Made by a program: the position numbers and the translations under genes. The notes below the pieces were generated by a model. The model was not told the DNA's origin and made no database searches. It was given only the letters and a program-made list of their open reading frames with translations. Below, piece after piece: positions 28,196 to 52,068 of a stretch of DNA of 57,826 nt; position 1 is the stretch's first letter, and every line of letters starts with the position of its first letter. The stretch is from a virus (lineage: Duplodnaviria; Caudoviricetes). The stretch spans positions 1-57,826 of the IMG/VR virus record IMGVR_UViG_3300022666_000342. One strand, 5' to 3'.

Positions 28196-28204
28196 AAGGA
28201 CCTC

Positions 28205-28759
28205 CTACTTTGCGCCCAGCCGGCGCATCCTCTGGTAAATGACCTGGGTGGCCTGGTTTTCCACCTGACGTTCAGCATCCCGGCTTAAACCGATAAAGGG
28301 CCGGGCCGGCACAATTGAATTGCTCATCGTAAGACCGCCCGAATTCAACGTTCTGATGCGGTTCGGCGTCTTCGGATCGTCTTCGGCGCTGAGGATAATG
28401 ATGGTGCGGCCCAGGATGCGCATGAACTGCGTAACATTCCGGGGATGCTGCGGATCGGTAAAGGACCGCTTGAGGTCGCCAGTCCGCACCAGGATTGGAT
28501 GCTCGGCCCCAACGCTGAACCGAATCCCGCGCCCATCGATGCCCAACCGGCGTTCTGCCTGAGTGCGACGCGCCAGCGGCACCCAGGGCTCGCCCGAAGG
28601 TTCGCTCTCCCGCTCAAAATTAAGCGCGATCCCGCGCCGCGCCGCGTCGGCGATGATTTCGCTTTCCCGGTTGGAGAGCAGGCCGACCTCAGATAGCGAC
28701 TTCCACCAGGAATCCGAAGCTTTACTGCGAGCAACGGTAACTTTAAGCGGCATTCCCAT
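28205..28759 (-). CDS. Phage virion morphogenesis protein (Mu gpG / P2 gpS-like)
   Basis: NFERESEPSGEPWVPL...ILVRTGDLKRS...VPARPFIGLS. Confidence 0.8.
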   Translation of the reverse strand: MGMPLKVTVARSKASDSWWKSLSEVGLLSNRESEIIADAARRGIALNFERESEPSGEPWVPLARRTQAERRLGIDGRGIRFSVGAEHPILVRTGDLKRSFTDPQHPRNVTQFMRILGRTIIILSAEDDPKTPNRIRTLNSGGLTMSNSIVPARPFIGLSRDAERQVENQATQVIYQRMRRLGAK

Positions 28760-30086: not shown

Positions 30087-30095
30087 GCTCCTCCT

Positions 30096-30133
30096 AAAAA
30101 TAGCGACGCGAGGCAAAAGCCACCCCGCGCCGC
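30096..30133 (-). terminator. Terminator-like hairpin inside the late operon
   Basis: Minus strand GCGGCGCGGGG...CCTCGCGTCGC followed by TATTTTT. Confidence 0.5.
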
Positions 30134-30134
30134 C

Positions 30135-30374
30135 TCAATCCAGTCCCATATCCCGCCGGATCATGCGATCCTGCCAGTTGAGGATCGCCATATCGTGGAT
30201 AAACCACTCCGGCCAGTCGGCCATCCCTCCGGCAAAGAGGGGGATCTGCCAGTCAAAACTTTTCCCCATTTTCCACAGGGGTATGGATAACTCTGGTTTA
30301 TAAAGTTCCCATTCCCCATCATCTTCCAGATTTCCGGCGTTTTTTGACTCCTTAAGCGCCCGGTTGTATTCCAT
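30135..30374 (-). CDS. Tail assembly chaperone, frameshifted C-terminal part (gpT-like)
   Basis: In frame with the upstream chaperone after a -1 slip at 30413-30419. Confidence 0.7.
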   Translation of the reverse strand: MEYNRALKESKNAGNLEDDGEWELYKPELSIPLWKMGKSFDWQIPLFAGGMADWPEWFIHDMAILNWQDRMIRRDMGLD

Positions 30375-30385
30375 CAGCTTGAGTC

Positions 30386-30775
30386 TTACGTCTCGCTGAT
30401 GGGACTCCCTGCGTTTTTTTCGGCCTCCTGACTCGAAGACGTTTCGTAAGGCGACCAGTGTGGATTCAGGTCGAAGACCGCTTCGGACCAGATCCAGAAA
30501 AATTGCTCAGGAAGCTCCAAAAAAGTATCGATATCCATCTCGATATCCAGACCCTCTGCCTGGACAGTAGCGGCGATCAAAGCCGGGTAAGCGTACCGCG
30601 CCATAACAACGGCAGCCCCGCCGGCCAGGCCGGCGAGGCTGCTTTCTTTGATGTAGCGCTCTGCCCGTCCCTGGAGCACAGTTCGTTTCATGCCGTCCAG
30701 TGCGGTGGCCTCGCGGACCACCAAACGGATGTCGTGACCTGCGTCCTTGAATTCGACAGTGCGTGTATCGCCCAT
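30386..30775 (-). CDS. Tail assembly chaperone (gpG-like)
   Basis: Follows the tail tube gene; ends ...EAEKN at a slippery site. Confidence 0.75.
   Translation of the reverse strand: MGDTRTVEFKDAGHDIRLVVREATALDGMKRTVLQGRAERYIKESSLAGLAGGAAVVMARYAYPALIAATVQAEGLDIEMDIDTFLELPEQFFWIWSEAVFDLNPHWSPYETSSSQEAEKNAGSPISET
30413..30421 (-). other. Programmed -1 ribosomal frameshift site GAA AAA AAC
   Basis: Heptamer A AAA AAC; the -1 frame reads KRRESHQRDVRLKL-MEYNR with no stop. Confidence 0.8.
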
Positions 30776-31605
30776 TACGCCATCTCGTACAGGCAGAAGA
30801 TGATTACACCGGCGGCCGGAGCTGTCAAGAACGTGATCGCGGTAGCCGACGCGGTCGGTCCGGTCGGTTTATACTCGCCATCCACCCAGAAATAAACCTT
30901 AGCCGCCGACGCGGCCGGCTTATCGGTGGGCAAGTTAAAAACCGTCACGGTGCCGTCGCCTTTCCAGGCTACAACATTGGGCTCTTTCTCGGTAATACCG
31001 AAAGACACCTTTCCGCGCGTGTACCCGTCAGCGGCTTTCGTGTATTCGGCTCCCCACAAATGCGTCTTGCTGGGCGTCGGCTGGATGGTATAGCCGTTTT
31101 CATCGCCGGCGCTCTTTTCCATTGCGCCGCCCTTGGGAATGGCATGCGCCTTCGGTACCACCATGTACTTCCAACGCCGACTCCCAAAGGTAGGACTCGA
31201 TTCGTCAGTATCCAGCGCCTGACGATAAGCAAAAAGACCAACCAAAGGCTCTCGCCCCTGTTGATCCGTCCCCATCCCCATCACCTGCATGTCGCCGATG
31301 GTATTGACTTTCACCCCCTGCAACATCGCATCGAGATCAAGGTTGCTCTTGGAAGTTTTGAAATCGATGGTCCCGACTTCGGTAGGGGGAAGCGTGTCAG
31401 CTGCGAACACGTTATCATCACCGTAATGGGTGATGACCTCAGGTTCGGCGAAGTTGGGAGTCAGGGAACTGGCGCCCTGAGCGAGCATGCCTTCATAACC
31501 GGTCGCGCCGGCAGTCGCAACCACAACCGCACCGTCCGACCCCAACGCGAAAAACCGGGCATGTCGAAACCCGGCACCAGAAACAACTTTACCTACAGCA
31601 GTCAT
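30775..31605 (-). CDS. Major tail tube protein
   Basis: Size and position upstream of the frameshifted chaperone; beta-rich with an Ig-like C-terminal end. Confidence 0.7.
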   Translation of the reverse strand: MTAVGKVVSGAGFRHARFFALGSDGAVVVATAGATGYEGMLAQGASSLTPNFAEPEVITHYGDDNVFAADTLPPTEVGTIDFKTSKSNLDLDAMLQGVKVNTIGDMQVMGMGTDQQGREPLVGLFAYRQALDTDESSPTFGSRRWKYMVVPKAHAIPKGGAMEKSAGDENGYTIQPTPSKTHLWGAEYTKAADGYTRGKVSFGITEKEPNVVAWKGDGTVTVFNLPTDKPAASAAKVYFWVDGEYKPTGPTASATAITFLTAPAAGVIIFCLYEMA

Positions 31606-31607
31606 CT

Positions 31608-32093
31608 TTACCCTCCGTAAAATTCCTGATCTTTGCTGTAAACCAGATCGCCTTCGAACTTGACCTCTTCGAAGTCCAGATCGAAATCAGCGAACTTTTC
31701 ATGTCCGCCACGCTCGTCGTAACGGACCGTCACAATGGCCGCTCCGCGGGAGAGCAACACAGGCTTCCCGACCAGTGCGTCGATCACCGCATCCCTGACA
31801 TCCCGGATTTCTCCGTAACCGTTGGAGCGGTCATAAATGAAAACAGAGCAGCGAGCCACGCGCCCATTGCCGCCCTTCGTTTCCCCTCGATCCATTACCA
31901 GGACAGCCAGCACGCCGGAGCCGGAGCCGGAGCCCGCCATCCGGGTCTGCTGCGCCGCCGAAAGGAACTCCGGCGTCAAGTCGCCAGATCCGAAAATCCC
32001 AGCGCTCCCGTCGACGATAGCGCCAGTAACTTCCGGCGCCGCCTCCAGTGTTGCCTGGGCCCAGGCCGCAAGGTCGCTATACCGCGTCGCCAT
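31608..32093 (-). CDS. Putative tail terminator/completion protein
   Basis: Synteny, directly upstream of the tail tube. Confidence 0.5.
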   Translation of the reverse strand: MATRYSDLAAWAQATLEAAPEVTGAIVDGSAGIFGSGDLTPEFLSAAQQTRMAGSGSGSGVLAVLVMDRGETKGGNGRVARCSVFIYDRSNGYGEIRDVRDAVIDALVGKPVLLSRGAAIVTVRYDERGGHEKFADFDLDFEEVKFEGDLVYSKDQEFYGG

Positions 32094-32376
32094 GGTCGCC
32101 CTCAGCGGCCGCGTCTACCTGGCCGGTCGGCCCGCCCTCCATCTGCAAACGTTTGCAGATGGGTTTGTAAAAGATCTTCCACCGGCCTTCCTTCTCCGCC
32201 TCGATCTTCGTGACGGTCCCAACTCGCTGACCATCAGAGACCAGGGTGGAGCCGGTTGGGACCGGCGGACGCTGCCAGGCCATCCCCTGCGTCACAAAGA
32301 AACCTTCGCCGACTGCAAAGGGAACAAACCGCCAGAGAAAAACCTCACCGCTGAAAGCCGCAACCTCGTTGCCCAT
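32077..32376 (-). CDS. Hypothetical head-tail region protein
   Basis: In operon; contains palindrome copy 3 (encodes ICKRLQM). Confidence 0.5.
   Translation of the reverse strand: MGNEVAAFSGEVFLWRFVPFAVGEGFFVTQGMAWQRPPVPTGSTLVSDGQRVGTVTKIEAEKEGRWKIFYKPICKRLQMEGGPTGQVDAAAEGDHGDAV
32139..32162. promoter_or_regulatory. Palindrome copy 3 (CCATCTGCAAACGTTTGCAGATGG)
   Basis: Exact core 32141-32160, extending to 24 bp; intragenic. Confidence 0.85.
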
Positions 32377-32385
32377 GCGCCCCCT

Positions 32386-32736
32386 TTACTGGATTTGCTC
32401 CAAACTGACAACTAATCCGGCCGGATTGGGAGCCAGCGAAAGTGCCCGGTACCGCTCCGAACCAGTCCACACCTCGTCGCCGGCCTGGATGTTGGCGTAG
32501 GTCGGCGCATGCATGACAAAGCCGGCCTGCCCAGCCGTCCCCTGAACGGTCTGCGCATCGCCGTCGCCGGCCGCCTCAGCAATGCGAGCTGTAAAGAATC
32601 CGACCCGCTGCTGCTGGCCGCCTTTGGTCTTCCGGTAGATCTGAACCGCCGTGTACAGGTCAGAAGCGACCCGGTTCAAAGCGGCTTTAAAAAGCGCTTG
32701 CCTTACTCTTCCGTTGAATTGCGTTCGCGTTGGCAT
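32386..32736 (-). CDS. Putative head closure/stopper protein
   Basis: Synteny; NIQAGDEV...RYR beta pattern; GAGG RBS before MPTRTQ. Confidence 0.5.
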   Translation of the reverse strand: MPTRTQFNGRVRQALFKAALNRVASDLYTAVQIYRKTKGGQQQRVGFFTARIAEAAGDGDAQTVQGTAGQAGFVMHAPTYANIQAGDEVWTGSERYRALSLAPNPAGLVVSLEQIQ

Positions 32737-32743
32737 ATCCGCC

Positions 32744-33298
32744 TCACAAATCCCTGAATGGATCAAGCGCCTTTTGTTGGTCGGGGCTGGTCGCGATGAC
32801 CACGCCGGCCGCCGAAGCGCTTTTGTCGGAGCGCAGCTCTTCGATCACCGTCTGCAACGCACGTAAAGCAGTGGACCGGTCAACGGTCTCCTGACCAAAC
32901 GTGTACCGCATGAAGCGGTCGGTATCTGCAATCAACGACCGCGCAGCGGCGATCGACGCCCGTTGCCAGGACCCGTACAGGTCAAGAAATTCCTGCAGCT
33001 CAGCGTCGCTGAAAGCAGCCCACTTGTAGGTGACTACCACCTCCGCGCCGGCCGCCGGCGCCGCCGTCGTGATGATCAACCCGGTAGCGATATCGATGGT
33101 GTAATCGGCATCGCGCGCCAGCAAGGTCTCGACCCCGCCGGCGCGCACGATCGCCACATCCGTGCCGGCCACCACCGGCGGCAGCTGGACAACAAACTGC
33201 CGATTCTGACCGTCGCCCAGCCCCGCAGTCTCCCGCAGGGCCAGCCGTTGACGGTCAGAAATCGTCAGCCGAATTCGCTCGATGTCCGTGAGCGCCAT
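32744..33298 (-). CDS. Putative head-tail adaptor
   Basis: TDIERIRLTISD...FSDAELQEFL connector-like motifs with an inserted beta domain. Confidence 0.6.
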   Translation of the reverse strand: MALTDIERIRLTISDRQRLALRETAGLGDGQNRQFVVQLPPVVAGTDVAIVRAGGVETLLARDADYTIDIATGLIITTAAPAAGAEVVVTYKWAAFSDAELQEFLDLYGSWQRASIAAARSLIADTDRFMRYTFGQETVDRSTALRALQTVIEELRSDKSASAAGVVIATSPDQQKALDPFRDL

Positions 33299-33300
33299 CG

Positions 33301-33636
33301 CTACACCCGGCCGGCCGCGCGATCGGCCTCGTTTGCCAGATCAAGCCGACCTTTTATCCGCCGGCGATTTTCCATGTCCGCGTCCTCTACCGTCATCTCA
33401 TGGGATTCTCCGCAGATATCGCGTTGGCCCTCATCCCGAAAGTAAGCGCCGCAAGTCCCGCAGCGCGGGAGCTTGCTCAGCGATTTCTCGGTCGGCTGCG
33501 GAGAAAGCTCGACCACCAGTCCATGTCTGATCAGGCCGCCATCGTTGACGCACCCTTTCAGCTCGAAAATCTGCCCCGGCTTAACATTCATTCCGGGAAG
33601 GTAGCAAAACGGCTTACGCGCCTCAACCCATGACAT
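33301..33636 (-). CDS. Hypothetical protein with CxxC motif
   Basis: GAGGAGG RBS; follows the capsid gene. Confidence 0.55.
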   Translation of the reverse strand: MSWVEARKPFCYLPGMNVKPGQIFELKGCVNDGGLIRHGLVVELSPQPTEKSLSKLPRCGTCGAYFRDEGQRDICGESHEMTVEDADMENRRRIKGRLDLANEADRAAGRV

Positions 33637-33649
33637 TGACAGCCTCCTC

Positions 33650-34618
33650 TTAATCCGCGGCGTCCGAGAAGAAAACGCCGGCTTCTTTGGCGATCTGATG
33701 CATGTCGAAGTACTGATAGCCTTCGATCAAATCGCCTTTGTCCGTCATCGGATCGCGGCGTTTCTTGATCAGCCGCGGCCCACCCATGGCCGTCCGCCAC
33801 GTAAAGGTATAGCCGGCGGTCGGCGTCCAGAGAGACGGCCGGTTCGCCACGTAGAGCAACAGGGCATCGTCGTCAAAGTTGCTGACGTAGGTCACCGACG
33901 CTTCCGCCGTTCCCTCAGGGCTGGCGGTATACATCGATGTCCCCACCAACACCCGCTCAACGCCGAACAACTGAGCCATCAAAGCCGGCGTAGCCATGGC
34001 CGGCTGACTGGAACTGGACGAGTACTTGATTCTGTCCAAAATCGACGGGTGATCACAGAGCACGTCATACACGAGATCGCCCAGGACCAGCGTGTTGGCC
34101 TTTTTCCCCATCAGGGCTCGCCGAATGGCGCGCGCGGCCGTGCGAATGTCCTGGATCGGCGTAGAGGTCGCGTACGTGCTCCACTTCGTGATGCTGGCAT
34201 CGGTTCCCCAGACGCCGGTTTTCCAAAAGCCAGCCACAAACGTGCGCTCGCGATTGAGCGCAAGCTTGTCCGTGACAAACTCGGTGCCATCGATGTCCGC
34301 ATCGAAAGGCCGGTCCGTGTTTTTCCGGCGCGCATCCGAGATAAAGTGACCGAAGCCCTTCTCTTTGCAGTAGTAGGTCTTTGTCACATCGGTGGTATAG
34401 CCGCCCACGGGAGCAGCCTCACGCTCGCCAAGCTCTTTGGCCTCGTCCCGCGCCCAGGCAGACTTGCCATACTCGGGAACGATGTCAGAGCGCTTCTCGA
34501 CCAGCACTTCCGGGAAGATCTGGTCAACGATGTACTCCTCGTTTTTGTAACCAACACTGACGTTGGTGAGGAGCTGATTGACGTGGGAATCTCCAGCACC
34601 TGGTTGTTCAACAGGCAT
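33650..34618 (-). CDS. Major capsid protein
   Basis: 322 aa; LLTNVSVGYKN..YIVDQIFPEV.V...ANTLVLG..VYDVL..HP pattern; downstream of the cement gene. Confidence 0.85.
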   Translation of the reverse strand: MPVEQPGAGDSHVNQLLTNVSVGYKNEEYIVDQIFPEVLVEKRSDIVPEYGKSAWARDEAKELGEREAAPVGGYTTDVTKTYYCKEKGFGHFISDARRKNTDRPFDADIDGTEFVTDKLALNRERTFVAGFWKTGVWGTDASITKWSTYATSTPIQDIRTAARAIRRALMGKKANTLVLGDLVYDVLCDHPSILDRIKYSSSSSQPAMATPALMAQLFGVERVLVGTSMYTASPEGTAEASVTYVSNFDDDALLLYVANRPSLWTPTAGYTFTWRTAMGGPRLIKKRRDPMTDKGDLIEGYQYFDMHQIAKEAGVFFSDAAD

Positions 34619-34630
34619 CGTCCTACCTCC

Positions 34631-35023
34631 TTAAGCCGCCCGCGCGGGCGAAATGCAATTGACCACGGCAGCGACAATGTTGCCGGCCGCCGCGGTTTCC
34701 AAAACCCGACCCAGGATGTACTCCGTGACATCCGTTCCCGCAATCTTCTTGTCCGCCTGCCCATCAGCAGACGTTCCAATCAGATCGCCGGCCGCCAGCG
34801 TCCCATCGGCGCTGATCTTGGTCGGACCAAAGGCCACAACCGTAGCCAGCTGACCCGACGCCGGAGCATTCTGGAGAACGCCAATCGGAACATCGGTCGC
34901 GGCCGCGATTTTCACAAAGGCACCATTGGAGTCGTATTTGACAAAGTGCCATTGATAGTCGGTCAAAGCCTCGCCGGCCGGAGCCGAGAGAAGCTGTTCA
35001 GGCCCTGAAGGAGCTGCTGCCAT
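34631..35023 (-). CDS. Capsid cement/decoration protein (DUF2190-like)
   Basis: PIGVLQNAP..G..A.V..G...AGD.I...ADG.A...G..LE.AAAG. Confidence 0.75.
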   Translation of the reverse strand: MAAAPSGPEQLLSAPAGEALTDYQWHFVKYDSNGAFVKIAAATDVPIGVLQNAPASGQLATVVAFGPTKISADGTLAAGDLIGTSADGQADKKIAGTDVTEYILGRVLETAAAGNIVAAVVNCISPARAA

Positions 35024-36228
35024 TACCGGCCTCCTTTCTGGCTTTCGTCCTGTTCCAACTCATATTCCCGATACAGGTCGGGGTTTTGAGCAAAGACTTC
35101 AGACAAAGCCTGGGTATAGTCCGCCTCCGTGTGGGCGGCCCGATACTTGGCGACTTCCACGTTGATCTTTTCCATCGTCTTGCCGGAGCCGATCCGGGTA
35201 GCGCCAGACCCCCGAGCCGAGAAAGCCTCAGCGAGCACAGTATCCGCCTTCTCCAGCAACTGAGAGAAGAACTGCGCATGCGACTGATCCTTCTCCTGAT
35301 CCATGCTGTACAGCCAGCGCAGCTGCTGCGCCAGCTGGCCCGACTCGCCCGGCATATGCGAAAACTTCGCAGCCGCCATCATCGTGAAGCGCTCCAGCTG
35401 GCGTTCCTGTTCGATGACGCTGATCCGGCCGGCCGCCCCTTCCAACTGCGCCTTATACTGGTCGCTCTCGGCCGTCTTGGCCGTCAGCTTCGCGTTGGCT
35501 TCCTGAAGCTGAGTCTTCATGGTCGCCATCTCGGAAGTGAACTGCGCGAACTTCTGATTGAACTCTGACATATCCGGCGCCTGCTGGCCGGCCGGCTGCA
35601 TAGAGCGCAGCCCGCCAAAAAGCTCAGCGAAAAACGCCCGGAACCCTTCCATGGTCAGCGGCTGATCGCCGCCGCCCTGGCCTCCGCCGTTCGTTCCGTT
35701 GCCCATAGAACCTCCATCTCCATCACCAAGATATAAAATACCGCCCCCCGCAGAATACAGAGCGGTTATTTCCCCGAAAAACGGGTAATTCGTGAGCGCG
35801 CCTCCGCCTACTTGGTTACGAACCTTCTGGTTTGTAACCTGGTCCGTCTGTTCCCAGTAGATCGACGGGGAGAAATAAGCAAACTCGTCTTCTTCGAGAG
35901 CCGCGCGCCCCTTTTTTGTCCAACCGAACGTAGCCCCCAGGCCGTTCGGCAACTCAAGCAAGTCCTTGTACCAACCAACCGCGCCGCCTTCGTGGTCAAT
36001 ATCCACCGCAAGGCGATCCCTGCGAATACCGCGATTTAAACGGTTGGCATAGTTGTCAAGGAATTCCTTGATCGTCTCGTCGTTTACCTCGTAAGCCCGT
36101 CCGTTGCGATAAAACGTCCCCTTCGGGAGGATCAAAATAGGCTCGCCGGCCAGCGCGCGCGCGGCAGACGACTTTCCACCCTCCATCGAATACAGGTCAA
36201 TAAAAAAATCACCCTGCGGTTTTGCCAT
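35023..36228 (-). CDS. Mu gpI-like prohead protease/scaffold
   Basis: VDIDH..AVGW...WT..G...FAYFSPSI...ALTNYPF protease motifs plus coiled-coil scaffold; GGAGGTGGAGG RBS. Confidence 0.85.
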   Translation of the reverse strand: MAKPQGDFFIDLYSMEGGKSSAARALAGEPILILPKGTFYRNGRAYEVNDETIKEFLDNYANRLNRGIRRDRLAVDIDHEGGAVGWYKDLLELPNGLGATFGWTKKGRAALEEDEFAYFSPSIYWEQTDQVTNQKVRNQVGGGALTNYPFFGEITALYSAGGGILYLGDGDGGSMGNGTNGGGQGGGDQPLTMEGFRAFFAELFGGLRSMQPAGQQAPDMSEFNQKFAQFTSEMATMKTQLQEANAKLTAKTAESDQYKAQLEGAAGRISVIEQERQLERFTMMAAAKFSHMPGESGQLAQQLRWLYSMDQEKDQSHAQFFSQLLEKADTVLAEAFSARGSGATRIGSGKTMEKINVEVAKYRAAHTEADYTQALSEVFAQNPDLYREYELEQDESQKGGR

Positions 36229-36246
36229 CCTCCACCTCCGGGAAAT

Positions 36247-36460
36247 AAAAAACGGGCCTGTCCCGCTTCCCAATATGGGAGCAGGGCAGGCCCGTGTGCG
36301 CACCTTCCTGGGCCAGCGAGCGCCGCGGTGGCCCGTAGGCTCGCGTCGCTCAGAAACAAAAAACGGGCCGCCGTCGCATAAAGCAACAGCGGCCCGTGTG
36401 TGTAATCGTCCAAGGCCTGGCCGGTGAGCGGTGGCCCGTAGGCTCGCGCCGGCCGTCAAT
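36247..36460 (-). promoter_or_regulatory. Tandem attenuator-like 5' leader of the head/tail operon
   Basis: Two ~103-nt units, each with an identical 21-mer (36428-36448 and 36325-36345) followed by an intrinsic terminator (36358-36397 and 36247-36295). Confidence 0.7.
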
Positions 36461-36467
36461 CAATAAG

Positions 36468-36496
36468 ATTATAGAACAAAAGGCCTAAGAAGTCAA
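36468..36496 (-). promoter_or_regulatory. Consensus sigma70 promoter for the head/tail operon
   Basis: Minus strand TTGACT-17 bp-TATAAT. Confidence 0.8.
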
Positions 36497-36501
36497 TACA
36501 G

Positions 36502-36576
36502 ATAGTTATGACTTTCGTCTGATAGACTTTGTACCTAAATTAAGGTAAAATGTAATCATAGACTGAAAATTAAGAA
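36502..36576 (+). promoter_or_regulatory. Cassette promoter/operator, copy A
   Basis: 62/75 identical and ungapped against 40588-40662; -10-like TAAAAT. Confidence 0.7.
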
Positions 36577-36593
36577 TTAAGGAGAATTAAAAA

Positions 36594-36923
36594 ATGAAAC
36601 TCACCGGAATGACCGCGACCAAAGAGAACAAAATCGGCAAGGTAGTCGAGGACCTCGACTGGACGCTGGAAATCGAGTGGAACGACGGCACCGGCAGCGA
36701 AGAGCAAATCACCGACATCGCCCTGCCCGCAAGCCGCAACAACGCCGCCATCAACATCGAAGCCAACCGCCGCCGCATCCAGGCCTTGACGGAAGAGATC
36801 AACGCCTACATCGCAGCGGTCACCAGCGAATGCACGGAAAAAGCCAACTGGCCCAACGCCGGCGAGCTGGGACGGCTGGTCGAAGCCCTGGAACACGCCC
36901 GCGAATACATGATGGGCGAATAG
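36594..36923 (+). CDS. Small array protein 1
   Basis: AAGGAG RBS; paralog of 36986-37303. Confidence 0.75.
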   Translation: MKLTGMTATKENKIGKVVEDLDWTLEIEWNDGTGSEEQITDIALPASRNNAAINIEANRRRIQALTEEINAYIAAVTSECTEKANWPNAGELGRLVEALEHAREYMMGE

Positions 36924-36985
36924 AACAAACAAAGGGCCGGCCCCACAAGGAGCCGGCCCACCTACCCACAAAAAGGAACAGAGAA

Positions 36986-37303
36986 ATGAACCTCACAAGC
37001 AAGACGGTCAACAAAGAAAATCGAAGCGGAGAAGTCCAAAGGGACTATGGCTGGCAACTGGTGGTCAAGTGGAGCGATGGAACCTACAGCGACGAACAGG
37101 TTTCCAGCTTCACACGAAACCAGGAAGACAAAACGGTCGAAACCGAATGCATAAAACGCCACATCAACATCTACATCGGCGACATCATCGCCTACAACGA
37201 AGTGACGACAGAGGACGCAGCAAAAAGCGACAGGATGGTAGAAAACCTACGGTTTATCGCGGAATCACTCGAAAAAGCCTACAGCCGCTTAATGGAAATC
37301 TAA
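36986..37303 (+). CDS. Small array protein 2
   Basis: MNLTSKTVNKENRSG...W.L.V.WSDGT.SDEQ aligns with protein 1. Confidence 0.75.
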   Translation: MNLTSKTVNKENRSGEVQRDYGWQLVVKWSDGTYSDEQVSSFTRNQEDKTVETECIKRHINIYIGDIIAYNEVTTEDAAKSDRMVENLRFIAESLEKAYSRLMEI

Positions 37304-37359
37304 AAACAAAGGGCCGGCCCCGAAGGGAGCCGGCCCACCCAACACCCAAAAGGAGACCC

Positions 37360-37716
37360 ATGAAAAACTTAACTGGACTGCAACTGACCGAAATCCGAAA
37401 CGGCATCATGAACCACGGCACCGTAATAGAAGATCGCGGAGAAACGATCATGGTCAACTGGGAACTGGCCTGGAACACGGGGATCTTCGAGGAGGTCTTC
37501 GAAGGGCTGAGAATCGACCGGGCCGGCCATGTGGACCCGGAGCAAGAGATGGAATTCTACGTCCGGGTAGCCGCCTGGAACGCCCATCTGCTGCACACCT
37601 ACTTCAAACGCAAGCAAATGGAAGACCGACCCGCTGAAGTAGACACGGAAACTATGCGGAAACTCGGCGCTGAACTGGATACCATCCTCAACACCCTGAT
37701 GGGACTCAAGAGCTAA
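37360..37716 (+). CDS. Small array protein 3
   Basis: AAAGGAG RBS; MKNLTG start; G.VIED.G....V.W similar to proteins 1 and 2. Confidence 0.7.
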   Translation: MKNLTGLQLTEIRNGIMNHGTVIEDRGETIMVNWELAWNTGIFEEVFEGLRIDRAGHVDPEQEMEFYVRVAAWNAHLLHTYFKRKQMEDRPAEVDTETMRKLGAELDTILNTLMGLKS

Positions 37717-37782
37717 AGCCACCGGGCCGGCGCCCCCAGGACGCCGGCCCACAAAAAAACAAAAGACGAAAGGACCCATAAG

Positions 37783-38043
37783 ATGAAAAACTTAACCGCC
37801 GCCGCGATCCAGGAGAAACTGCTCGAATACGCCGAACTGGCCCTCGAAGAGGAGACCGGAGAGTACATCACCACGCAGATGACAGAGGGAGTGATGAACG
37901 ACCTAAACCTCTACAGCGACGAAGCCTCCGAAGCCATCGAAGAACTGATCGATCGGATGGCAGTAGATCTGAGCGAACGCCTTCCGCAGAGACTGCCGGC
38001 CAGCACCCTGGCCGAATACGGCCGGGAGATTAAAGCCCTTTAA
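37783..38043 (+). CDS. Small acidic array protein 4
   Basis: MKNLT start; strongly Glu/Asp-rich. Confidence 0.7.
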   Translation: MKNLTAAAIQEKLLEYAELALEEETGEYITTQMTEGVMNDLNLYSDEASEAIEELIDRMAVDLSERLPQRLPASTLAEYGREIKAL

Positions 38044-38104
38044 TCCCCTCGGGCCGGCCCCGAAAGGAGCCGGCCAGCTAAAAACAAACGAAAGGAACAG
38101 GAAA

Positions 38105-38287
38105 ATGGAACTCACAAAACAGATCGAAGAAAGAAAACGTCAGATCGCAGATTATCTCGAAAGATTGAATTCCAGAATTAACATGTATGTGGAGGATCAC
38201 GAGAACCCGACAACAAGAAACGTCGATCTACTCGGAAAACTGATCGACTCCATCGATCAAGCCATGGATCTCATGCCGCCCGATTAA
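38105..38287 (+). CDS. Small array protein 5
   Basis: MELT start; resembles the C-terminal helical half of protein 1. Confidence 0.7.
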   Translation: MELTKQIEERKRQIADYLERLNSRINMYVEDHENPTTRNVDLLGKLIDSIDQAMDLMPPD

Positions 38288-38293
38288 TTACCC

Positions 38294-38334
38294 AGAAGAA
38301 ATCCGCCTGATTGAAAATCAGGCGGGTTTCTTCT
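38294..38334. terminator. Bidirectional terminator
   Basis: AGAAGAAATCCGCCTGATT-GAA-AATCAGGCGGGTTTCTTCT. Confidence 0.8.
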
Positions 38335-38527
38335 ATAAAAGTACACCCCCATTAAAAATCCCTTTTTAAGCCCTCGACTAACGCTTGATTAACACCTTCT
38401 AATTACAATAGACCTAACCATAACCCTGGCACAACTTAACTAACGTAAAGCGATCTTATGCGTTAGAATAGTATAAAATTAACCCGCCATTTATTTTATT
38501 TCCCTTGTTTCCCAGGAGGTAAGTACC

Positions 38528-40474
38528 ATGCCAACAAAAAGTTCAGTTGAAAAGCCAAAATCAGAAACGCCGCATCTTAACCCAAGTTCGCAGCCTCAAG
38601 TTTCAGGAATTGCGCCCGATGGATTCGAGACGCCCATGATCTCGCCCACTGGATTAAATGCCCACACTTTAAACCCTCGTACATTACCCTCGATTCAACG
38701 AACCTTCGGTAATCAAGCTGCAAGCCGAATGATTCAAACTCAAAGACTGAATCATTCCCCAATTCAGGCTTCACCGATGATCCAACGTCAGGTTGAAAAA
38801 ACTGACGGAAGCTCAGCTATGGGGAAATATAAGATTGGAAGAGTGAATAACGATTGGATTCCCATTAAATGGGAAGGAGGGGATACCGTTCAAGATTTAA
38901 TAACGCTCTCTGAAATTAAAGAAGACTGCTTGGTAAAAAAAATAACGACGGCTTCTTCTCCCTCTACATCATCATCGGGGAAAAAGCCAGTTAAAAAATC
39001 AAGCAACTCATTCGCGCAGCAGCAAGAACAACTTGAAAATCTAAGTAATCCAAAAGAAACAGAAAAAATAGTCGGTAAAAGCGCTGCTTTGGAGGCAAAT
39101 AGTTCTTTCATTTTAATACCTGCCTTAAATTCACCAGTAAATAAGAATCATATGGCAGTTCTCAGTTCATTGTCTCGCCTGGCTCGCACTTTTGGGAAGA
39201 AAATATCCAAAGGCGGTCAAGAAGCACAGGCTATCTTTATCGATGGGAAAATTGTGCTCACAGGCAATAGTAATGCAGAAACAGCCGCTTTAGCAGCTCA
39301 AATACCCCAAGAAGGAAGCACTGCATCCCAAACAAAAACAGCATTACGATCTTTGTTTGCACTCTCATACGCAAAAGAGGGACTTCCTAAGGAGCTATCG
39401 AGTACTAAAGGTGAGCGCTCTTATGAGGATCTTCAAGTTGCCCGCTCCCAAGATCTTAAAATTGTCGAGGATTGGATTGATTTAGTTTCCCTCCCTGATG
39501 AGCAAAAATTTGCCAAAGTCGTATCCAGTGTCCAAGAAGCACAAACAACTGCAGCTCCTTTAATTATTTTATCGACTCCAACAAGCGATTCTTCTGAAGA
39601 CAGTAGCAGCCCAAAAGTAGAAAAGAAAGGAGCAAAAAAGGTAGAGGGAAAGAAAAAAGTTGGGGAAAAAGCAAAAGAAAAGAAAGGAGCAAAAAAAGTA
39701 GAGGAAAAGAAAAAAATAGGAGGAAAAGCAAAGCTAGAAGAGAAAGAAGAGGTAAAAGAAAAGGAACCGGTAAAAGAAGAGAAATGGCACGCTGAACAAA
39801 AGCTGCTGCTTGTTCTGGCCGAATATCTAAAAAGGGAGATTCCGGTTTCACAAGTCGCAATAGCTGGGGTTAAATACCCTTGTAATTTATGCAAGGCAGA
39901 ACTCGCTCTCCACAAAAAAGCATTAAAAATGGCCTATCCTACGTTAAAAGTATCGTATGACAAGATAAAGGACTCTTCGAAAGAGTCTTCAATTTCTCAA
40001 AATACAACGATGACAACAAATACTACCACAACAGAACTCACTACCAATACATCAAGCTCTACATCAAGCATGAAGGATCTGGATTCTTTTGGATATGAAG
40101 AAGATAATCATACAAGAAAACCTATCGAAGACAAGAAAGTAACAGAGGGAAACGCAACGCCGGCGCATAAACGTCTTATTTCCGATAACTTGACTAAAGA
40201 AGAATCCTTCACGAAAGAAGAATCAGTCAAGAAAGAATTGCCGCCAGCTTTCGCACATTATCTTAAACTCTTACAAGACCCATCCTCCATGGTGCAATCC
40301 CAACCATCATCATCATCATCATCTTCTTCCTCAAAAGGAATAGAAGTAGAAAAAAGCGGGGAGGGAGAAAAGGGCGAAGAGAAAGAAAAGAGCGAAGAAG
40401 GAGAAAAGGGTAAAGGGGTAGAAAAAGGCGGAGAGGAAAAAAAGGGGGAAAATGGCGACGGAGAGGAAGATTAG
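38528..40474 (+). CDS. Putative Zn-dependent nucleic-acid deaminase toxin with eCIS-cargo-like N-terminus
   Basis: HAEQKLL (39788) ... KYPCNLC (PCNLC at 39878-39892); N-terminal IQRTFGNQAA...PIQ..PMIQR; low GC; AGGAGGT RBS; K/E/S low-complexity tracts. Confidence 0.7.
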   Translation: MPTKSSVEKPKSETPHLNPSSQPQVSGIAPDGFETPMISPTGLNAHTLNPRTLPSIQRTFGNQAASRMIQTQRLNHSPIQASPMIQRQVEKTDGSSAMGKYKIGRVNNDWIPIKWEGGDTVQDLITLSEIKEDCLVKKITTASSPSTSSSGKKPVKKSSNSFAQQQEQLENLSNPKETEKIVGKSAALEANSSFILIPALNSPVNKNHMAVLSSLSRLARTFGKKISKGGQEAQAIFIDGKIVLTGNSNAETAALAAQIPQEGSTASQTKTALRSLFALSYAKEGLPKELSSTKGERSYEDLQVARSQDLKIVEDWIDLVSLPDEQKFAKVVSSVQEAQTTAAPLIILSTPTSDSSEDSSSPKVEKKGAKKVEGKKKVGEKAKEKKGAKKVEEKKKIGGKAKLEEKEEVKEKEPVKEEKWHAEQKLLLVLAEYLKREIPVSQVAIAGVKYPCNLCKAELALHKKALKMAYPTLKVSYDKIKDSSKESSISQNTTMTTNTTTTELTTNTSSSTSSMKDLDSFGYEEDNHTRKPIEDKKVTEGNATPAHKRLISDNLTKEESFTKEESVKKELPPAFAHYLKLLQDPSSMVQSQPSSSSSSSSSKGIEVEKSGEGEKGEEKEKSEEGEKGKGVEKGGEEKKGENGDGEED

Positions 40475-40547
40475 TAAAACCGATAAAAAATAACAGGTCT
40501 CAATTCTGACTTTGCTTTCCCAGCCAATCACACAATTTAGACAACAG

Positions 40548-40580
40548 GAACCCGCCGGATTTTCAATCCGGCGGGTTTTC
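40548..40580. terminator. Intrinsic terminator, inverted near-copy of 38294-38334
   Basis: GAACCCGCCGGATT-TTC-AATCCGGCGGGTTTTC. Confidence 0.8.
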
Positions 40581-40587
40581 AATTTAT

Positions 40588-40662
40588 ATAGTTATGACGT
40601 TCGTCTCATAGCTATTATACCTAAAATTAGGTATAATAGAAACGTAGACTGAAAATTAAGAA
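40588..40662 (+). promoter_or_regulatory. Cassette promoter/operator, copy B
   Basis: TATAAT inside a palindrome with 13-bp arms, CTATTATACCTAA-AA-TTAGGTATAATAG (40612-40639). Confidence 0.75.
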
Positions 40663-40680
40663 ACGAGAGGAGCCCTTAAA

Positions 40681-40970
40681 ATGTCAGATTTTGAATGCCC
40701 AGCCTGCGGAAAGAAACTCAGCCAGAAAACAGTAAATACGCCCTACAACGGAAACATCTTCGCATGGCAATGCCCGAAGTGCCAGTGCGTAATCGCAGAA
40801 GACATCACGCTGGGAAGCTCCTTCTCCCTGGTAGACAACACGATGACCGAAGACGAAGAAGCCTTCGCCCGCGCCATCCCCTACGACCTGACCTGCCTGA
40901 GCAGCCGCGGAATCTCCGACGGCACGGGTTCTTCGACCCGATCACCCGCAAAATCACGCAGGTCGGCTAA
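40681..40970 (+). pseudogene. Zn-ribbon protein with apparent single-base frameshift near 40916
   Basis: CPAC...CPKC. A plausible C-terminus RRHGFFDPITRKITQVG* lies in another frame and stops just before the hairpin/RBS unit. Confidence 0.5.
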
Positions 40971-41030
40971 ACAAACCAGCGCCGCCGGTCAGCCGGCCGG
41001 CGGCGCCCATCACAACAAAAGGAGACCAAC

Positions 41031-41255
41031 ATGAAAACCATACCGACCAAAAACGAATACTGGATGAAGCTGCTACCCCCGCATGTCCTGGCCCGCGTCA
41101 TCATCGAGATCGATGAAGCGAACCACGAACAAGACGAGGAAATCTACGACGTAGTTCTTGAAGGGCAATCAGTGCTCATCCTGACATGCGGTCAGGATCT
41201 GGCCCACGACCTGCTCACAAAGGCCTTCCTGGATCGCAACCGGCAGGTGGTATAA
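41031..41255 (+). CDS. Small acidic protein
   Basis: Hairpin 40979-41006 and AAAGGAG RBS; paralog of the next gene. Confidence 0.7.
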   Translation: MKTIPTKNEYWMKLLPPHVLARVIIEIDEANHEQDEEIYDVVLEGQSVLILTCGQDLAHDLLTKAFLDRNRQVV

Positions 41256-41449
41256 TGAGCGCCGCATGGATGAGCCGGCTCAGCAACGCAGCGCTCGCCC
41301 AGATGGTCGCCGCCCTCAATCTGGCCGGCGACCCCGAAGACCAAGACGACGAAGAGATCCGGGCCAGCGCCCGGATCGTCCTCGACGACCGGATCGGCCA
41401 GGAAGACGCCGCCCGAGAGATAGAAGAAGCTTACAGAAGGATGGTGTGA
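41255..41449 (+). CDS. Small acidic protein
   Basis: TAATG coupling; WM..L....LA...DEEI...VL....GQ..A pattern shared with the previous gene. Confidence 0.65.
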   Translation: MSAAWMSRLSNAALAQMVAALNLAGDPEDQDDEEIRASARIVLDDRIGQEDAAREIEEAYRRMV

Positions 41450-41451
41450 AA

Positions 41452-41805
41452 ATGCCCCGAGCAGGATACTACAGCCTTCCGATCAACGCAGGAAATCAAG
41501 CCCCCCTAAAGGCCATCTGCGCCGCGCACGGCTGGCCGGCCAACTCTACCGGCTACACCGCAGCCTTCCGCCTCGCCCTGGCCTCCGCCCTGGGCGAGAT
41601 CGACCCGGAGATCCGCCCCCAGCCGGAGCGCTCCGAAGTCGGCGAGGATTGGGTGATTTTAAAAATCGACGACCCCACCATCCGCCGGCGGCTCGACGCC
41701 CTGGTGACAAGACTGCATCTGGAGCCCGGCACCCGGGCCGACCGGGAAGCGCTTCAATTCGCCATCCTTCTCCTGAACTACGCCATGCTCCCCCCGCAGG
41801 AATAA
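41452..41805 (+). CDS. Hypothetical protein, possibly a tandem ribbon-helix-helix regulator
   Basis: Two strand-helix-helix-like halves (YYSLPIN...AAFRLAL; WVILKID...EALQFAI); weak. Confidence 0.5.
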   Translation: MPRAGYYSLPINAGNQAPLKAICAAHGWPANSTGYTAAFRLALASALGEIDPEIRPQPERSEVGEDWVILKIDDPTIRRRLDALVTRLHLEPGTRADREALQFAILLLNYAMLPPQE

Positions 41806-41839
41806 AAAGACGGGCCCGGATCGCCTCCGGGCCCGTTTT
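41806..41839. terminator. Bidirectional terminator at convergent junction
   Basis: AAAGACGGGCCCGGA-TCGCC-TCCGGGCCCGTTTT. Confidence 0.8.
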
Positions 41840-41863
41840 CTATCTGCAAACGTTTGCAGATAG
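41840..41863. promoter_or_regulatory. Palindrome copy 4 (CTATCTGCAAACGTTTGCAGATAG)
   Basis: Exact core extended to 24 bp; abuts the terminator. Confidence 0.85.
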
Positions 41864-41881
41864 TTGCGATCCGACAGAAAC

Positions 41882-42139
41882 CTATCCCGCCGCTGTTGCA
41901 TCCCCGTCCAACACTTGTTGCATCCCGTCAGCCCGGCACTCCTCGCGCGGCCGCTCCAACGCGCCCGACAGCATCACCGACCAGCTCGATACCCCCGCAG
42001 CGCCCCCGCCAGTCTTGACCAACTGGATCAAAAACACGCCCTCGGGGAGAGAAAAAATCCGATTTAAAAAGCTTGCCATCGCCCGCGGGAGAGTCACCAT
42101 TGCCGTCTGTCCCCCTCCAGGTTTTAAAGCCATACCCAC
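41882..42139 (-). CDS. Hypothetical protein
   Basis: GGAGG RBS; overlaps the portal stop. Confidence 0.45.
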   Translation of the reverse strand: MGMALKPGGGQTAMVTLPRAMASFLNRIFSLPEGVFLIQLVKTGGGAAGVSSWSVMLSGALERPREECRADGMQQVLDGDATAAG

Positions 42140-44322
42140 CGCCCTCCTTCGTACTTTTGGAGATCACACCGGCAATTGCCGTCGCATGGGGTTCCATGTC
42201 CCGGCAACGTCCCCTGGGTAAAAGCAATCATCTGATTCCAGGAAGCGTATTCCCGCGCGTAACGCGGGCATTCCGAACAATGCTTCGCTAAATTGTCCAT
42301 CACCCAGCGAACCGGCACCGTCGCCCGCTCCACCGGCGTCATCCGCTGGCCGGCCCCGGCCCAGATAGAATGCCACACATGCCCCGCATACAGCCCTCCG
42401 CGCGCGTAGCTGTTGGTAGCCTCTTTGACCGCTGCAATGAACTCCGCGCCGGCCTCCTGCCGCCGGCCGGCCTTCAAAAGGAGCAGAATCGCCGCAATAC
42501 GCCCCTCCAGCGTTCCCGCAATGTCCCCGAATAGAGTGCCGCCCCCATCCGGATTGACGCGCCGGATTCTATCCGGCCCATCATATCCAATATAGGAGTC
42601 GGCCATATCCGTCTCTCGGCTCAGCGCTGCGTTCTCCTCGGACCCGCCCGCCGGCTTCCCAAAAGCCAGCCAGAAGGCCGCCGCGATGTCGATGACCGAA
42701 CGCTCCCGAAAAAGGAGCATCCCCACCAGCGTCCAATCGTCGATCTTCGATCGAAGATCCGCCTCGGTCGTCTCTGGCCCCAGGCCAGCGATGGCGTCCG
42801 CCGCGTCCCCGGCCCAGTTTTCCAGGTTGGCCCGCTGCGTCTGGGCATTGGCGTCTGCCGCCGCCGTGTATCGTTGCTGGCGCTCCGCAGCCGGCACCAC
42901 CGCAAAGGTCTCAGTGCCGCCGAGCATGGCTTCTTGGGCATCCTCTTCTGGCTCGACCTCTTCGCCAGCGGCCGGATCTTCTCCGTCCCTCTCACCGTCC
43001 TCCTCGCCGCCCTGGGGCGGGTCCTTTTCCTCTGCTTCCCCGTCTTTCCCGTCAGATAGGGCCGGCTTCCCGGTACCCGGCCGGCCGGCCGGCTTCGGCT
43101 CGTCGTCCTCTACCCCCTCAGCCACCTCAGTGGGCATGCCGGGAATCAAAGAACGCAGGAAGACTTCCGCGTCCCGATCAGGAGTGAAAGCCCCGGCCCC
43201 CGACAGGGACCCGATAAATTGCCCGATCGCCCCCAGATCCAGCGCCCTGGGCGAAGAGCAGGTAAGCACCGGCATCCCGGTCACCCCCCGCATCGAATTC
43301 CAGCGCATCAGGTAAGGGATCGCCTTCCGATTGAAGACCGACATGATCGAGTTGAGATAGGCCTCGATTGCCAGCCAATAAGCCTCCATCAGAGTGCCGG
43401 CGAGGGATTGCGTCCCCGTTTCGCGGAGCCCCACCAGCATAAACTGCGCCAAAATCGACCGGGCCATCTCCAGATCTTTGCGCATGATGGTCGCCCCCAA
43501 GGTGTCGTCCACCGTCCCCTGCGGACCGCCCAGGTCAATGCTCCACCCAGATGGAAGGTGGGCGCCCATAACCTCATCGTTGTAAATCTGTTCTACCAAA
43601 TCCTTCGCTTTCTGCTCGTCGGATTTCTGACCTTCTTCCTCAATTGTCGTCGCGCCGTTCGGCAGCGTGACAACCGGGAAGCCGGCCCACCGACGATACA
43701 ATCCCATCCCCTCAATCTGCTCCAGCCGCCTCTTGAATTGATACGCCCGCGCCGCCGCCCGATAAATCGAAAGCCCCTCCGGGATATTCCCATCCCGACA
43801 AGTTCGGAAATGCAAACTGCGCTCGACCGGGATGATGGCATTGGAGCCCTTGAGCGTGTATTGCTCCATTGCAGTGAGCTTTCCGGTCTCGTCATCGATC
43901 ACCCACTGATACCATGAATGCTGCGGACGAAAGGCAATCTCCCCAAAGCCTACCGTCCCATCCGACCGTCTGCGCATGACCATCTCAAACCACGCCCACC
44001 CGTAAGTGAACATGGTGCAGATGTCATCTAACAGGTCAGGAAACGACATGTCAGGCATCGTCGAAAGGCAATCCCACACAAACTCAGCCGCCGTCTGGTC
44101 TCCCCGCGTCTTTCTGCCCCCAGGAACGACGCGCCACTGCACCTTCAAGATGGGCAGCGTCAGAATTTGATGCATGGCGATTCCCGTGGGATCTGTGTGC
44201 CGAATTTCGTCATACACCCGGGCCCCAGCCGGCCAGCGGAAGCGCGGGTCTGGATCGATATAAAGCAGCCGGCCCCACTGAGACAGACCAGAGGACCCTA
44301 ATTCCTTAAATTTTCCTGGCAT
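42124..44322 (-). CDS. Portal protein (Mu gp29/DUF935-like) fused to a MuF-like minor head domain
   Basis: YGWAWFEMV...PEGLSIYR...MARSILAQF portal motifs; acidic linker; C-terminal W...HCSEC...LPG..TPCDGNCRC. Confidence 0.8.
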   Translation of the reverse strand: MPGKFKELGSSGLSQWGRLLYIDPDPRFRWPAGARVYDEIRHTDPTGIAMHQILTLPILKVQWRVVPGGRKTRGDQTAAEFVWDCLSTMPDMSFPDLLDDICTMFTYGWAWFEMVMRRRSDGTVGFGEIAFRPQHSWYQWVIDDETGKLTAMEQYTLKGSNAIIPVERSLHFRTCRDGNIPEGLSIYRAAARAYQFKRRLEQIEGMGLYRRWAGFPVVTLPNGATTIEEEGQKSDEQKAKDLVEQIYNDEVMGAHLPSGWSIDLGGPQGTVDDTLGATIMRKDLEMARSILAQFMLVGLRETGTQSLAGTLMEAYWLAIEAYLNSIMSVFNRKAIPYLMRWNSMRGVTGMPVLTCSSPRALDLGAIGQFIGSLSGAGAFTPDRDAEVFLRSLIPGMPTEVAEGVEDDEPKPAGRPGTGKPALSDGKDGEAEEKDPPQGGEEDGERDGEDPAAGEEVEPEEDAQEAMLGGTETFAVVPAAERQQRYTAAADANAQTQRANLENWAGDAADAIAGLGPETTEADLRSKIDDWTLVGMLLFRERSVIDIAAAFWLAFGKPAGGSEENAALSRETDMADSYIGYDGPDRIRRVNPDGGGTLFGDIAGTLEGRIAAILLLLKAGRRQEAGAEFIAAVKEATNSYARGGLYAGHVWHSIWAGAGQRMTPVERATVPVRWVMDNLAKHCSECPRYAREYASWNQMIAFTQGTLPGHGTPCDGNCRCDLQKYEGGRWVWL

Positions 44323-44332
44323 ATGATTCTCC

Positions 44333-48012: not shown

Positions 48013-48237
48013 TTATTGTCTTGCAGCTTTACGGGTCCGCCGATTAAGCTGGAGAGACTCTTCCTTTACCACGTATGCATATTCTCCACCGCTAATCTCA
48101 ATGATAATTTTACCGAAACCAGACCGGGCTATAATTTCACGCCCGACCATAAGGACTGTTTTGATCATCGCCTCCTCCGACATCGCTTCGTCGTTTACTG
48201 CAGGTTGGATTTTCGCCGGAGCAGCCACAGATGCCAT
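48013..48237 (-). CDS. Small YezD/DUF2292-like protein
   Basis: GFGKIIIEISGG...VVKEES pattern; AAGGAGG RBS; upstream TTGACA-16-TAAATT (48303-48276). Confidence 0.5.
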   Translation of the reverse strand: MASVAAPAKIQPAVNDEAMSEEAMIKTVLMVGREIIARSGFGKIIIEISGGEYAYVVKEESLQLNRRTRKAARQ

Positions 48238-52067: not shown

Positions 52068-52068
52068 C

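Follow-up and report, generated by a model that had tools for sequence, protein, structure and literature searches.

A tandem hairpin-terminator leader that may gate the late operon of a Chloroflexota-type prophage

Results

A promoter and two hairpin-terminator units precede the head genes

The head and tail genes of a prophage with a presumed Chloroflexota-type host are preceded by a leader in which a near-consensus promoter is followed by two apparently duplicated units, each comprising a hairpin built around the same 21-mer and an intrinsic terminator. We consider it about an even chance that this leader acts as a conditional terminator gate on the late operon, which a trans-acting factor would release, with the hairpins as the likely RNA recognition sites of that factor. 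In its layout, the leader looks like a new version of the lambda-like late-gene switch, in which transcription stops unless it is released.

The window, by which we mean the whole 57,826-nt stretch of DNA that was analysed, corresponds to C30:8273-66098, part of one contig in a genome of 7.97 Mb and 136 contigs. It is a prophage region whose phage proteins have their named homologues in Anaerolineae/Chloroflexi MAGs, and the host is probably an uncultured bacterium of Chloroflexota type. The gene blocks that frame the leader are as follows.

1332-4168, plus strand: replication genes (Pfam and/or PHROGs scan)
about 57000 to 42124, minus strand: block with the terminase and portal genes at its end
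44333-46042, minus strand: large terminase, within the block ending at 42124
42124-44487, minus strand: portal, within the same block
36594-41805, plus strand: block between the portal gene and the leader
36228 to 16319, minus strand: late operon of head and tail genes, ~20 kb
35023-36228, minus strand: head maturation protease (Mu-like I protein), first gene of the operon (PF10123, 7.2e-10)
34631-35023, minus strand: scaffold, 3' of the protease
33650-34618, minus strand: major capsid protein, 3' of the scaffold

The leader occupies precisely the interval that separates the plus-strand block from the protease gene. The protease N-terminus read from the ATG at 36228 aligns with its homologues, the protease, scaffold, and capsid region matches the PHROGs families phrog_328, phrog_673, and phrog_1005, and the operon includes an ORF of 2099 aa.

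The plus-strand block has two features of its own. At 36594-38288, divergent from the leader promoter, are five small tandem genes (60-118 aa), the first two visibly paralogous, with A far exceeding T (AT skew 0.3-0.57) and with near-identical hairpins (GGGCCGGC...GCCGGCCC) following genes one to four; none of the five matched a Pfam or PHROG family, except for a weak DUF3135 match on the last gene. At 38200-40600 is a low-GC island (39-43% versus about 60%) with its own terminators; its 648-aa ORF (38528-40474) had no Pfam or PHROG match and resembles a cargo gene of foreign origin placed within the structural region. On the minus strand at 48864-52626, the prophage also carries a prokaryotic ubiquitin-like conjugation set, which is followed by an SSB gene.

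52069-52626, minus strand: Prok_Ub
50259-51089, minus strand: Prok-E2_D
49643-50275, minus strand: JAB (weak match)
48864-49655, minus strand: ThiF/E1
48387-48833: SSB gene, after the conjugation set

The two units share sequence-identical blocks and paired stems

The elements of the leader, all on the minus strand, are listed in the order of transcription.

36468-36496, minus strand: sigma-70-type promoter TTGACT-17 nt-TATAAT (11/12 consensus matches)
36419-36454, minus strand: hairpin P1a, basal stem GGCCGG/CCGGCC, holding 21-mer copy 1 (36428-36448); -20.8 kcal/mol, z -2.4
36398-36418, minus strand: spacer 1, predicted to be single-stranded, with GGCC..GGA..CACAC common to spacer 2
36357-36397, minus strand: intrinsic terminator T1, 15-bp stem ACGGGCC...GGCCCGU, then U6-G-U3; -32 kcal/mol, z -8.5
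36318-36351, minus strand: hairpin P1b, basal stem GAGCG/CGCUC, holding 21-mer copy 2 (36325-36345); -19.6 kcal/mol, z -3.05
36296-36317, minus strand: spacer 2 (from the unit alignment)
36246-36295, minus strand: intrinsic terminator T2 with the same 7-bp base, then U6-A-U3; -35 kcal/mol, z -7.6
36226-36239, minus strand: RBS GGAGGTGGAGG and ATG of the protease gene (ATG at 36228)

The initial annotation had described the promoter, two units of ~103 nt with an identical 21-mer in a hairpin, and two terminators that run from ACGGGCC to GGCCCGT-U6 with different but pairing upper stems; all of these are present, and the units fold stably. The -35 box (TTGACT) occupies 36496-36491 and the -10 box (TATAAT) 36473-36468, with a predicted start near 36461. 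This promoter is the top-scoring promoter-like site within 28000-47900, and it looks constitutive. The 21-mer, CGCGAGCCTACGGGCCACCGC, lies at 36448-36428 and again at 36345-36325, giving a period of 103. At up to three mismatches these are its only two matches in the window (0 in 100 shuffles), and its 15-nt core occurs only at these two places in the 7.97-Mb genome.

P1a and P1b have identical architecture, in which the basal stem is followed by GCG/CGC, an A/CAC internal loop, GCC/GGC, and a UACG loop, which we take to be an UNCG-type tetraloop; they hold 94% and 87% of the predicted ensemble, respectively. Their closing stems were initially said to differ and still pair. The pairing holds, while the difference is smaller than that wording implied: when the stems are compared in the register of the 21-mer, three of the five comparable pairs are unchanged and two are compensatory (C:G to G:C and G:C to A:U). 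The hairpin-to-terminator gap is 21-22 nt in each unit. The terminator hairpins alone span 36397-36363 (T1) and 36295-36252 (T2), and their upper stems are unrelated in sequence and length, yet fully paired. Aligning the two units leaves three blocks free of differences, namely the 21-mer, CACACGGGCC, and GGCCCGTTTTTT, with diverged sequence between them, and the fold of the whole leader has a z-score of -5.96. The units thus appear to be diverged duplicates. Since neither the 21-mer nor the terminator base nor the U tract has changed, while the stems have diverged and still pair, selection has probably acted on an RNA structure together with a sequence-specific element. It is extremely unlikely that the repeats are instead protein-binding sites in the DNA, 103 bp apart, or a non-functional remnant of the duplication: identical 21-bp direct repeats about 10 helical turns apart would suit DNA binding, but the compensatory stem changes and strong fold z-scores point to RNA, and the 21-mer lacks palindromic symmetry.

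No competing fold exceeds chance

The initial annotation had proposed that the ACGGGCC within the 21-mer competes for the 3' strand of the terminator. The ingredients of such a self-contained RNA switch, be it a riboswitch or an attenuator working through alternative pairing of the heptamers, are in place, as ACGGGCC occurs in both 21-mers and in both terminator bases and each spacer has a GGCC(U/C) able to pair with GGGCC. The energies do not bear this out. The top duplex between the upstream region and the terminator 3' strand reaches ~-22 kcal/mol, a value that 15% of shuffled upstream sequences also attain. For the terminator 5' strand, RNAduplex gave -14.8 kcal/mol in unit 1 and -20.6 kcal/mol in unit 2, values that 93% and 91% of shuffles, respectively, equalled or bettered; no upstream segment thus pairs competitively with the terminator 5' strand as in a classical attenuator or RAT. 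When the terminator 5' strand was masked, P1 still formed in unit 1 and unit 2 refolded around the 21-mer, and the 21-mer paired with the terminator 3' strand in neither. Even if the 21-mer did pair with GGCCCGU, the resulting helix would lie right next to the U tract and hence pose no obvious block to termination.

The alternative helices are 5-7 bp long, versus terminators of -31 to -35 kcal/mol, and the upstream hairpin already holds 87-94% of the ensemble. A further terminator with the same ACGGGCC/GGCCCGT base, ACGGGCCCGG...CCGGGCCCGT, lies at 41810-41836 between the convergent portal and plus-strand operons, where it is bidirectional and has no 21-mer nearby; the shared heptamer may therefore simply be the terminator base that this phage favours. 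(A perfect 24-nt palindrome, CTATCTGCAAACGTTTGCAGATAG, adjoins this terminator within 41810-41870.) With no competing fold above chance and no match in Rfam, we reject a self-contained switch as the leading model and judge it very unlikely; the riboswitch option in particular finds a small, very stable, UACG-capped hairpin and no alternative fold. The lack of a built-in alternative fold favours a trans-acting factor.

The leader is the only visible entry to the late operon

The U tract of T2 ends 7 nt 5' of the RBS and 17 nt 5' of the ATG at 36228, and the space between the terminators and the RBS is too small for a further promoter. A promoter scan of 15800-36228 revealed no second strong promoter on the minus strand. 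Farther upstream, the intervening plus-strand block contains six minus-strand terminator-like hairpins (41836, 41007, 40577, 38325, 37336, and 36959), so that transcription from the terminase-portal genes is unlikely to reach the head genes. Given this shielding from the portal operon and no other visible entry, virion production would then require antitermination. Internal terminators are few within the late operon, and both a local and a processive mode of factor action therefore fit the data.

The flank of the promoter offers a point against the gate. Next to it, on the other strand, is the following feature.

36499-36551, plus strand: divergent promoter region TAGACT-17 nt-TAAAAT, back-to-back with the leader promoter, with the palindrome TACCTAAATTAAGGTA

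The promoter region at 36499-36590 has a copy, 81% identical, at 40594-40680 on the plus strand; both have a palindrome (TACCTAAnnTTAGGTA) that spans the -10 box, preceded by the conserved block ATAGTTATGACnTTCGTCTnATAG. The first of them reaches directly up to the -35 box of the leader promoter, and a shared 26-bp segment separates the two divergent -35 boxes. The duplicated regions look like possible sites of a shared regulator, and through the 26-bp segment the leader promoter itself may be regulated, in which case the terminators would need a different rationale.

Candidates for the factor were sought among about 67 ORFs of the window by Pfam and/or PHROGs (not every ORF with both), and no member of the Q, N, ANTAR, CAT/BglG, NusG-like, or sigma families was found. 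An ESM Atlas search gave no usable match for the divergent 109-aa gene and only a DUF2292 lead for a 74-aa ORF at 48013-48237. If no such protein acts, the hairpins could be cis-acting elements that render RNA polymerase terminator-resistant by themselves, as put does in phage HK022, leaving regulation to the promoter. The location of the hairpins between promoter and terminators and the possible operator adjoining the promoter would suit this reading, as would the outcome of the factor search. It is nonetheless highly improbable: constitutive read-through would render two strong terminators pointless, and the HK022 put site is a two-stem element of about 70 nt, versus a single hairpin of 34-36 nt here.

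The 21-mer leader is known from one genome

A search of the whole window against Rfam 15 returned no match at the gathering thresholds. With E-values up to 10, the best matches in 36100-36650 were mir-4484 (24 bits, cutoff 90) and P18 (23 bits, cutoff 60), which we read as chance; the initial annotation, which recognised no known Rfam family in the leader, thus holds in both searches. By blastn, the leader had no match in the phage GenBank collection, and no additional copy is present in its own genome. A search of viral contigs did not retrieve the 21-mer. A 20-mer search of metagenome contigs gave three matches (L035-L037) in coding or high-GC DNA without terminators, which we also read as chance.

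Searching closer relatives gave a similar picture. Sixty-one relatives searched by DNA gave no more than two matches, both of them short and weak (29-31 nt, E 2e-4 to 1e-3); with the protease as query, 401 genomes of the class, G000 included, gave no match outside G000; and a DNA search of 145 genomes of the order retrieved G001 only, which has an L006-type protease without the leader. The 21-mer leader is therefore known from one genome, and the homologous leaders once hoped for as a source of covariation come down to short contigs from two public runs of other habitats, X3 and X4, that overlap it. In X3, a run labelled RNA-Seq but classified as probably DNA, a 233-nt contig covers 36180-36412 with two differences; none of the runs listed as holding the leader is on record as RNA. 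In X4, a 322-nt contig spans the whole leader with 21 substitutions and four indels, and hence the tandem layout is present in at least one diverged relative. All four indels (36315, 36353, 36404, and 36425) fall at positions predicted to be unpaired, an outcome estimated to arise by chance in about 18% of cases, which lends weak support to the proposed gate. Base 36315, in spacer 2, is substituted in X3 and absent in X4.

Several other identities for the repeat were considered and rejected. A guanidine-II-like tandem ACGR hairpin is contradicted by the UACG loop and by the Rfam result, a CRISPR-repeat mimic by the lack of a related repeat in the genome, a leader peptide by the lack of an RBS or a plausible ORF, and a cos or pac site by its position. 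A type III toxin-antitoxin locus (ToxIN-like) does not fit either, as the gene downstream is the PF10123 head protease and each repeat has a terminator.

Related phages place a terminator at the same position

The protease has relatives with 34-62% identity. Their loci were collected (29 fetched, eight exact duplicates dropped) and 21 distinct ones were examined for a compact hairpin of -23 kcal/mol or lower, with at least five T among the 8 nt of its tail, located immediately before the protease gene or before a small ORF that precedes it. Such a terminator was present in eight of the 21 (L007, L011, L012, L013, L015, L017, L019, and L023), and a ninth locus, L008, has the same hairpin with four T. 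Hairpins in L028 and L030 passed the energy cut and were left uncounted, being coding sequence with poor tails. In seven of the nine loci, a promoter with at least 10/12 consensus matches, usually TTGACA-17/18-TGnTATACT, lies within 260 nt upstream of the terminator; L011 and L017 have 9/12 promoters as judged by eye. Two loci have a promoter and no terminator (L032 and L033), one has a promoter-like site farther upstream (L009), and the other nine have neither.

The order promoter, terminator, gene is constant among these relatives and is the reverse of a plain operon boundary, which argues for regulated read-through or for production of a short RNA. With a terminator in nine of 21 loci, mostly accompanied by a promoter, a gate at the head-protease position would be a conserved design. 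The earlier proposal that the leader gates the head and tail operon accordingly keeps its support from placement and from recurrence in relatives and loses the competing-heptamer switch. All nine relatives are single modules, and the tandem form sets the window apart. In several of these relatives, the cassette lies directly 3' of a portal/MuF-like gene, the C-terminus of which resembles that of the portal of the window; here, the plus-strand block has apparently been inserted between the portal gene and the cassette.

Most terminators of the relatives carry a second, unrelated motif

Most of the relatives with a terminator before the protease share what we call Group A, an invariant single-stranded GCC[CU]GACUGAG located 9-11 nt 5' of an intrinsic terminator with the base CCGGGGC/GCCCCGG. 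The upper stem covaries, both partners having changed in six of 13 predicted pairs. Pattern scans of viral contigs gave 31 distinct regex matches, ~14 of them convincing by eye; the others lie in coding-like DNA without a terminator. Its members (L008, L012, L013, L015, L017, L019, L039 with three copies, L052, L064, L076, L088, and L091) come up to three to a phage, since L013, L052, and L064 belong to one phage and L019 and L091 to another. Most copies follow a consensus promoter, and one copy of L039 sits between a minor head protein gene and a scaffold gene. The spacing of the motif is kept relative to the terminator and not to the promoter. Rfam gave no family match on these loci, and Group A appears to be a terminator-coupled RNA motif that has not been described before; its reverse complement resembles, we presume, a tRNA D-arm.

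Some of these phages have further elements nearby. L008 (about 1828-1920) and L015/L018 (about 2029-2125), two related phage contigs, have, 5' of the Group A cassette, a second cassette made up of a promoter, a short RNA, and a terminator, with the sequence TTGACACCGG.GGGCGGATATGATA... and the terminator.GCCCCAGG...CCGTGGGGC. The leaders of L012 and L015 contain an optional hairpin, GCGC-ACAAA-GCGC or GCGC-CAAAA-GCGC, between the transcription start and the Group A motif; with its A-rich pentaloop, it looks similar to the boxB hairpins of lambdoid phages.

A covariance model of Group A (R1) scored 22.4 bits (rough E 1.4e-4) at 47991-47926 on the minus strand of the window. This site is a terminator between the promoter-driven 74-aa ORF and an operon that runs on to the terminase gene and starts, as read from the sequence, with a predicted membrane protein. 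Matches to the motif itself in the window are at chance level (three found versus 2.2 expected). On the tandem leader, R1 scored 9 bits (E 0.59, unit 1), which indicates that the leader is not a Group A member. The two are alike in the slot they occupy and in the order of promoter, short RNA, terminator, and RBS of a protease or scaffold gene, and both combine a conserved upstream element and a conserved terminator base with a free upper stem. They differ in that the Group A motif is single-stranded and unrelated in sequence.

Proposed operation of the leader

From the arrangement of these elements, we infer termination, read-through, a factor, and binding of that factor to the hairpins. Host RNA polymerase would start at the near-consensus promoter and by default stop at T1, which would yield a ~105-nt RNA; those few polymerases that escape T1 would stop at T2 (about 210 nt), and the virion genes would stay silent. 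During lytic growth, a putative factor would let polymerase pass both terminators. Being conserved in sequence and structure and present once per terminator, the two identical hairpins are natural candidates for its recognition sites on the nascent RNA, nut-like and one to each terminator. Short terminated RNAs would be expected to arise as a by-product, and they may have gained functions of their own. Two features count against the gate: a processive nut-like factor needs one site only, and a local factor normally binds a site overlapping the terminator, which here lies 21-22 nt away from the hairpin.

A more specific proposal is tentative and rather doubtful at present: the 21-nt UACG hairpin may be the site of a new type of phage antiterminator, acting locally and once per terminator, and together with Group A it may belong to a motif-tagged late programme in Chloroflexota-type phages.

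The same constellation could serve a different end, with the cassette being mainly one or two nested sRNA genes (about 105 and 210 nt) that act in trans, and the head genes being expressed by leaky read-through or otherwise. A 5' hairpin, a single-stranded stretch, and a Rho-independent terminator with poly-U make an sRNA-like shape, the promoter has a constitutive look, Group A relatives occur up to three times per phage, mostly with their own promoter, and phage leader RNAs can turn into sRNAs (PMC7547250). Still, we regard this as unlikely as the main role. In the window and the relatives alike the element is always in the same orientation and directly 5' of an RBS, no other promoter was found for the 20-kb operon, and the 15-nt core has no complementary copy in the genome. 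An sRNA role is compatible with the gate as its second function.

The recognition site could also lie in the DNA rather than in the RNA. A Q-like factor would then be recruited at the promoter by a DNA site together with a promoter-proximal pause, and the hairpins would be 5' stabilisers or sRNA structure. In lambda, a -35-like element is located in the initial transcribed region, and here TTGAC occurs 10 nt downstream of the -10 box. A strong promoter followed by a terminator before late genes is also the arrangement of lambda PR'-tR' (PMC7547250). This reading leaves the perfectly conserved 21-mer and the one hairpin per terminator unexplained, no Q family was found among the ORFs scanned, and in Group A the spacing of the motif is constant with respect to the terminator and not to the promoter; we consider it distinctly unlikely.

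Discussion

Late-gene control has been worked out mainly in lambdoid and a few other model phages, and a literature search, the query of which did not name the group, found nothing on it in Chloroflexota phages. Were the tentative proposal of a hairpin-specific antiterminator true, the leader would be a two-step, near-digital gate on virion genes, and phages of Chloroflexota-type hosts would, with Group A, control their late programme by way of motif-tagged terminators, a regulatory scheme for which neither Rfam nor the literature found has a description. Motif-tagged terminators at the same position in unrelated phage contigs suggest that the principle is possibly widespread. The locus is a compact, testable cassette of about 270 bp, which would be expected to stop transcription by itself and to allow read-through only when a phage factor is present, and it could thus serve to fish for a new antiterminator together with its RNA site.

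Three known types of system invite comparison. In BglG/LicT RAT-terminators and PyrR binding loops, each terminator has one conserved binding hairpin and the arrangement is repeated serially, as is the case with the hairpins and terminators in series of the window. Their sites overlap or compete with the terminator, whereas the hairpin of the window is separate from it and has no above-chance competing fold; also, no CAT-, ANTAR-, or PyrR-like protein was found in the window ORFs scanned.

From the lambda N/nut system, the leader differs in that its two copies are 103 nt apart in a single leader and not in two operons, and in that the hairpin departs from boxB in loop and size, having a UACG tetraloop on an irregular 12-bp stem. 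Neither a boxA in the leader, inspected by eye, nor an arginine-rich N-like protein was recognised. The likeness is that of a small conserved hairpin in the nascent RNA between promoter and terminator, in two copies per phage, as described for N (PMC2724277).

The third is the lambdoid PR'-tR'/Q system with its 6S RNA/StxS. PR' transcripts terminate at tR' just downstream unless Q acts, and the short PR'-tR' RNA became the sRNA StxS in lambdoid phages (PMC7547250). The tandem leader likewise has a strong promoter, immediate intrinsic terminators, and virion genes downstream, and would, under the gate proposed here, share the short terminated RNA as a by-product and the release by antitermination. 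Unlike PR'-tR', it has two tandem terminators with an identical hairpin before each, its gated genes begin with a head protease and not with lysis genes, its host is of Chloroflexota type, and no Q-family protein was found among the window ORFs scanned. The PR'-tR' precedent and StxS make a dual role plausible, in which the leader would serve both as a gate on the late operon and as a source of abundant short RNA in lysogens.
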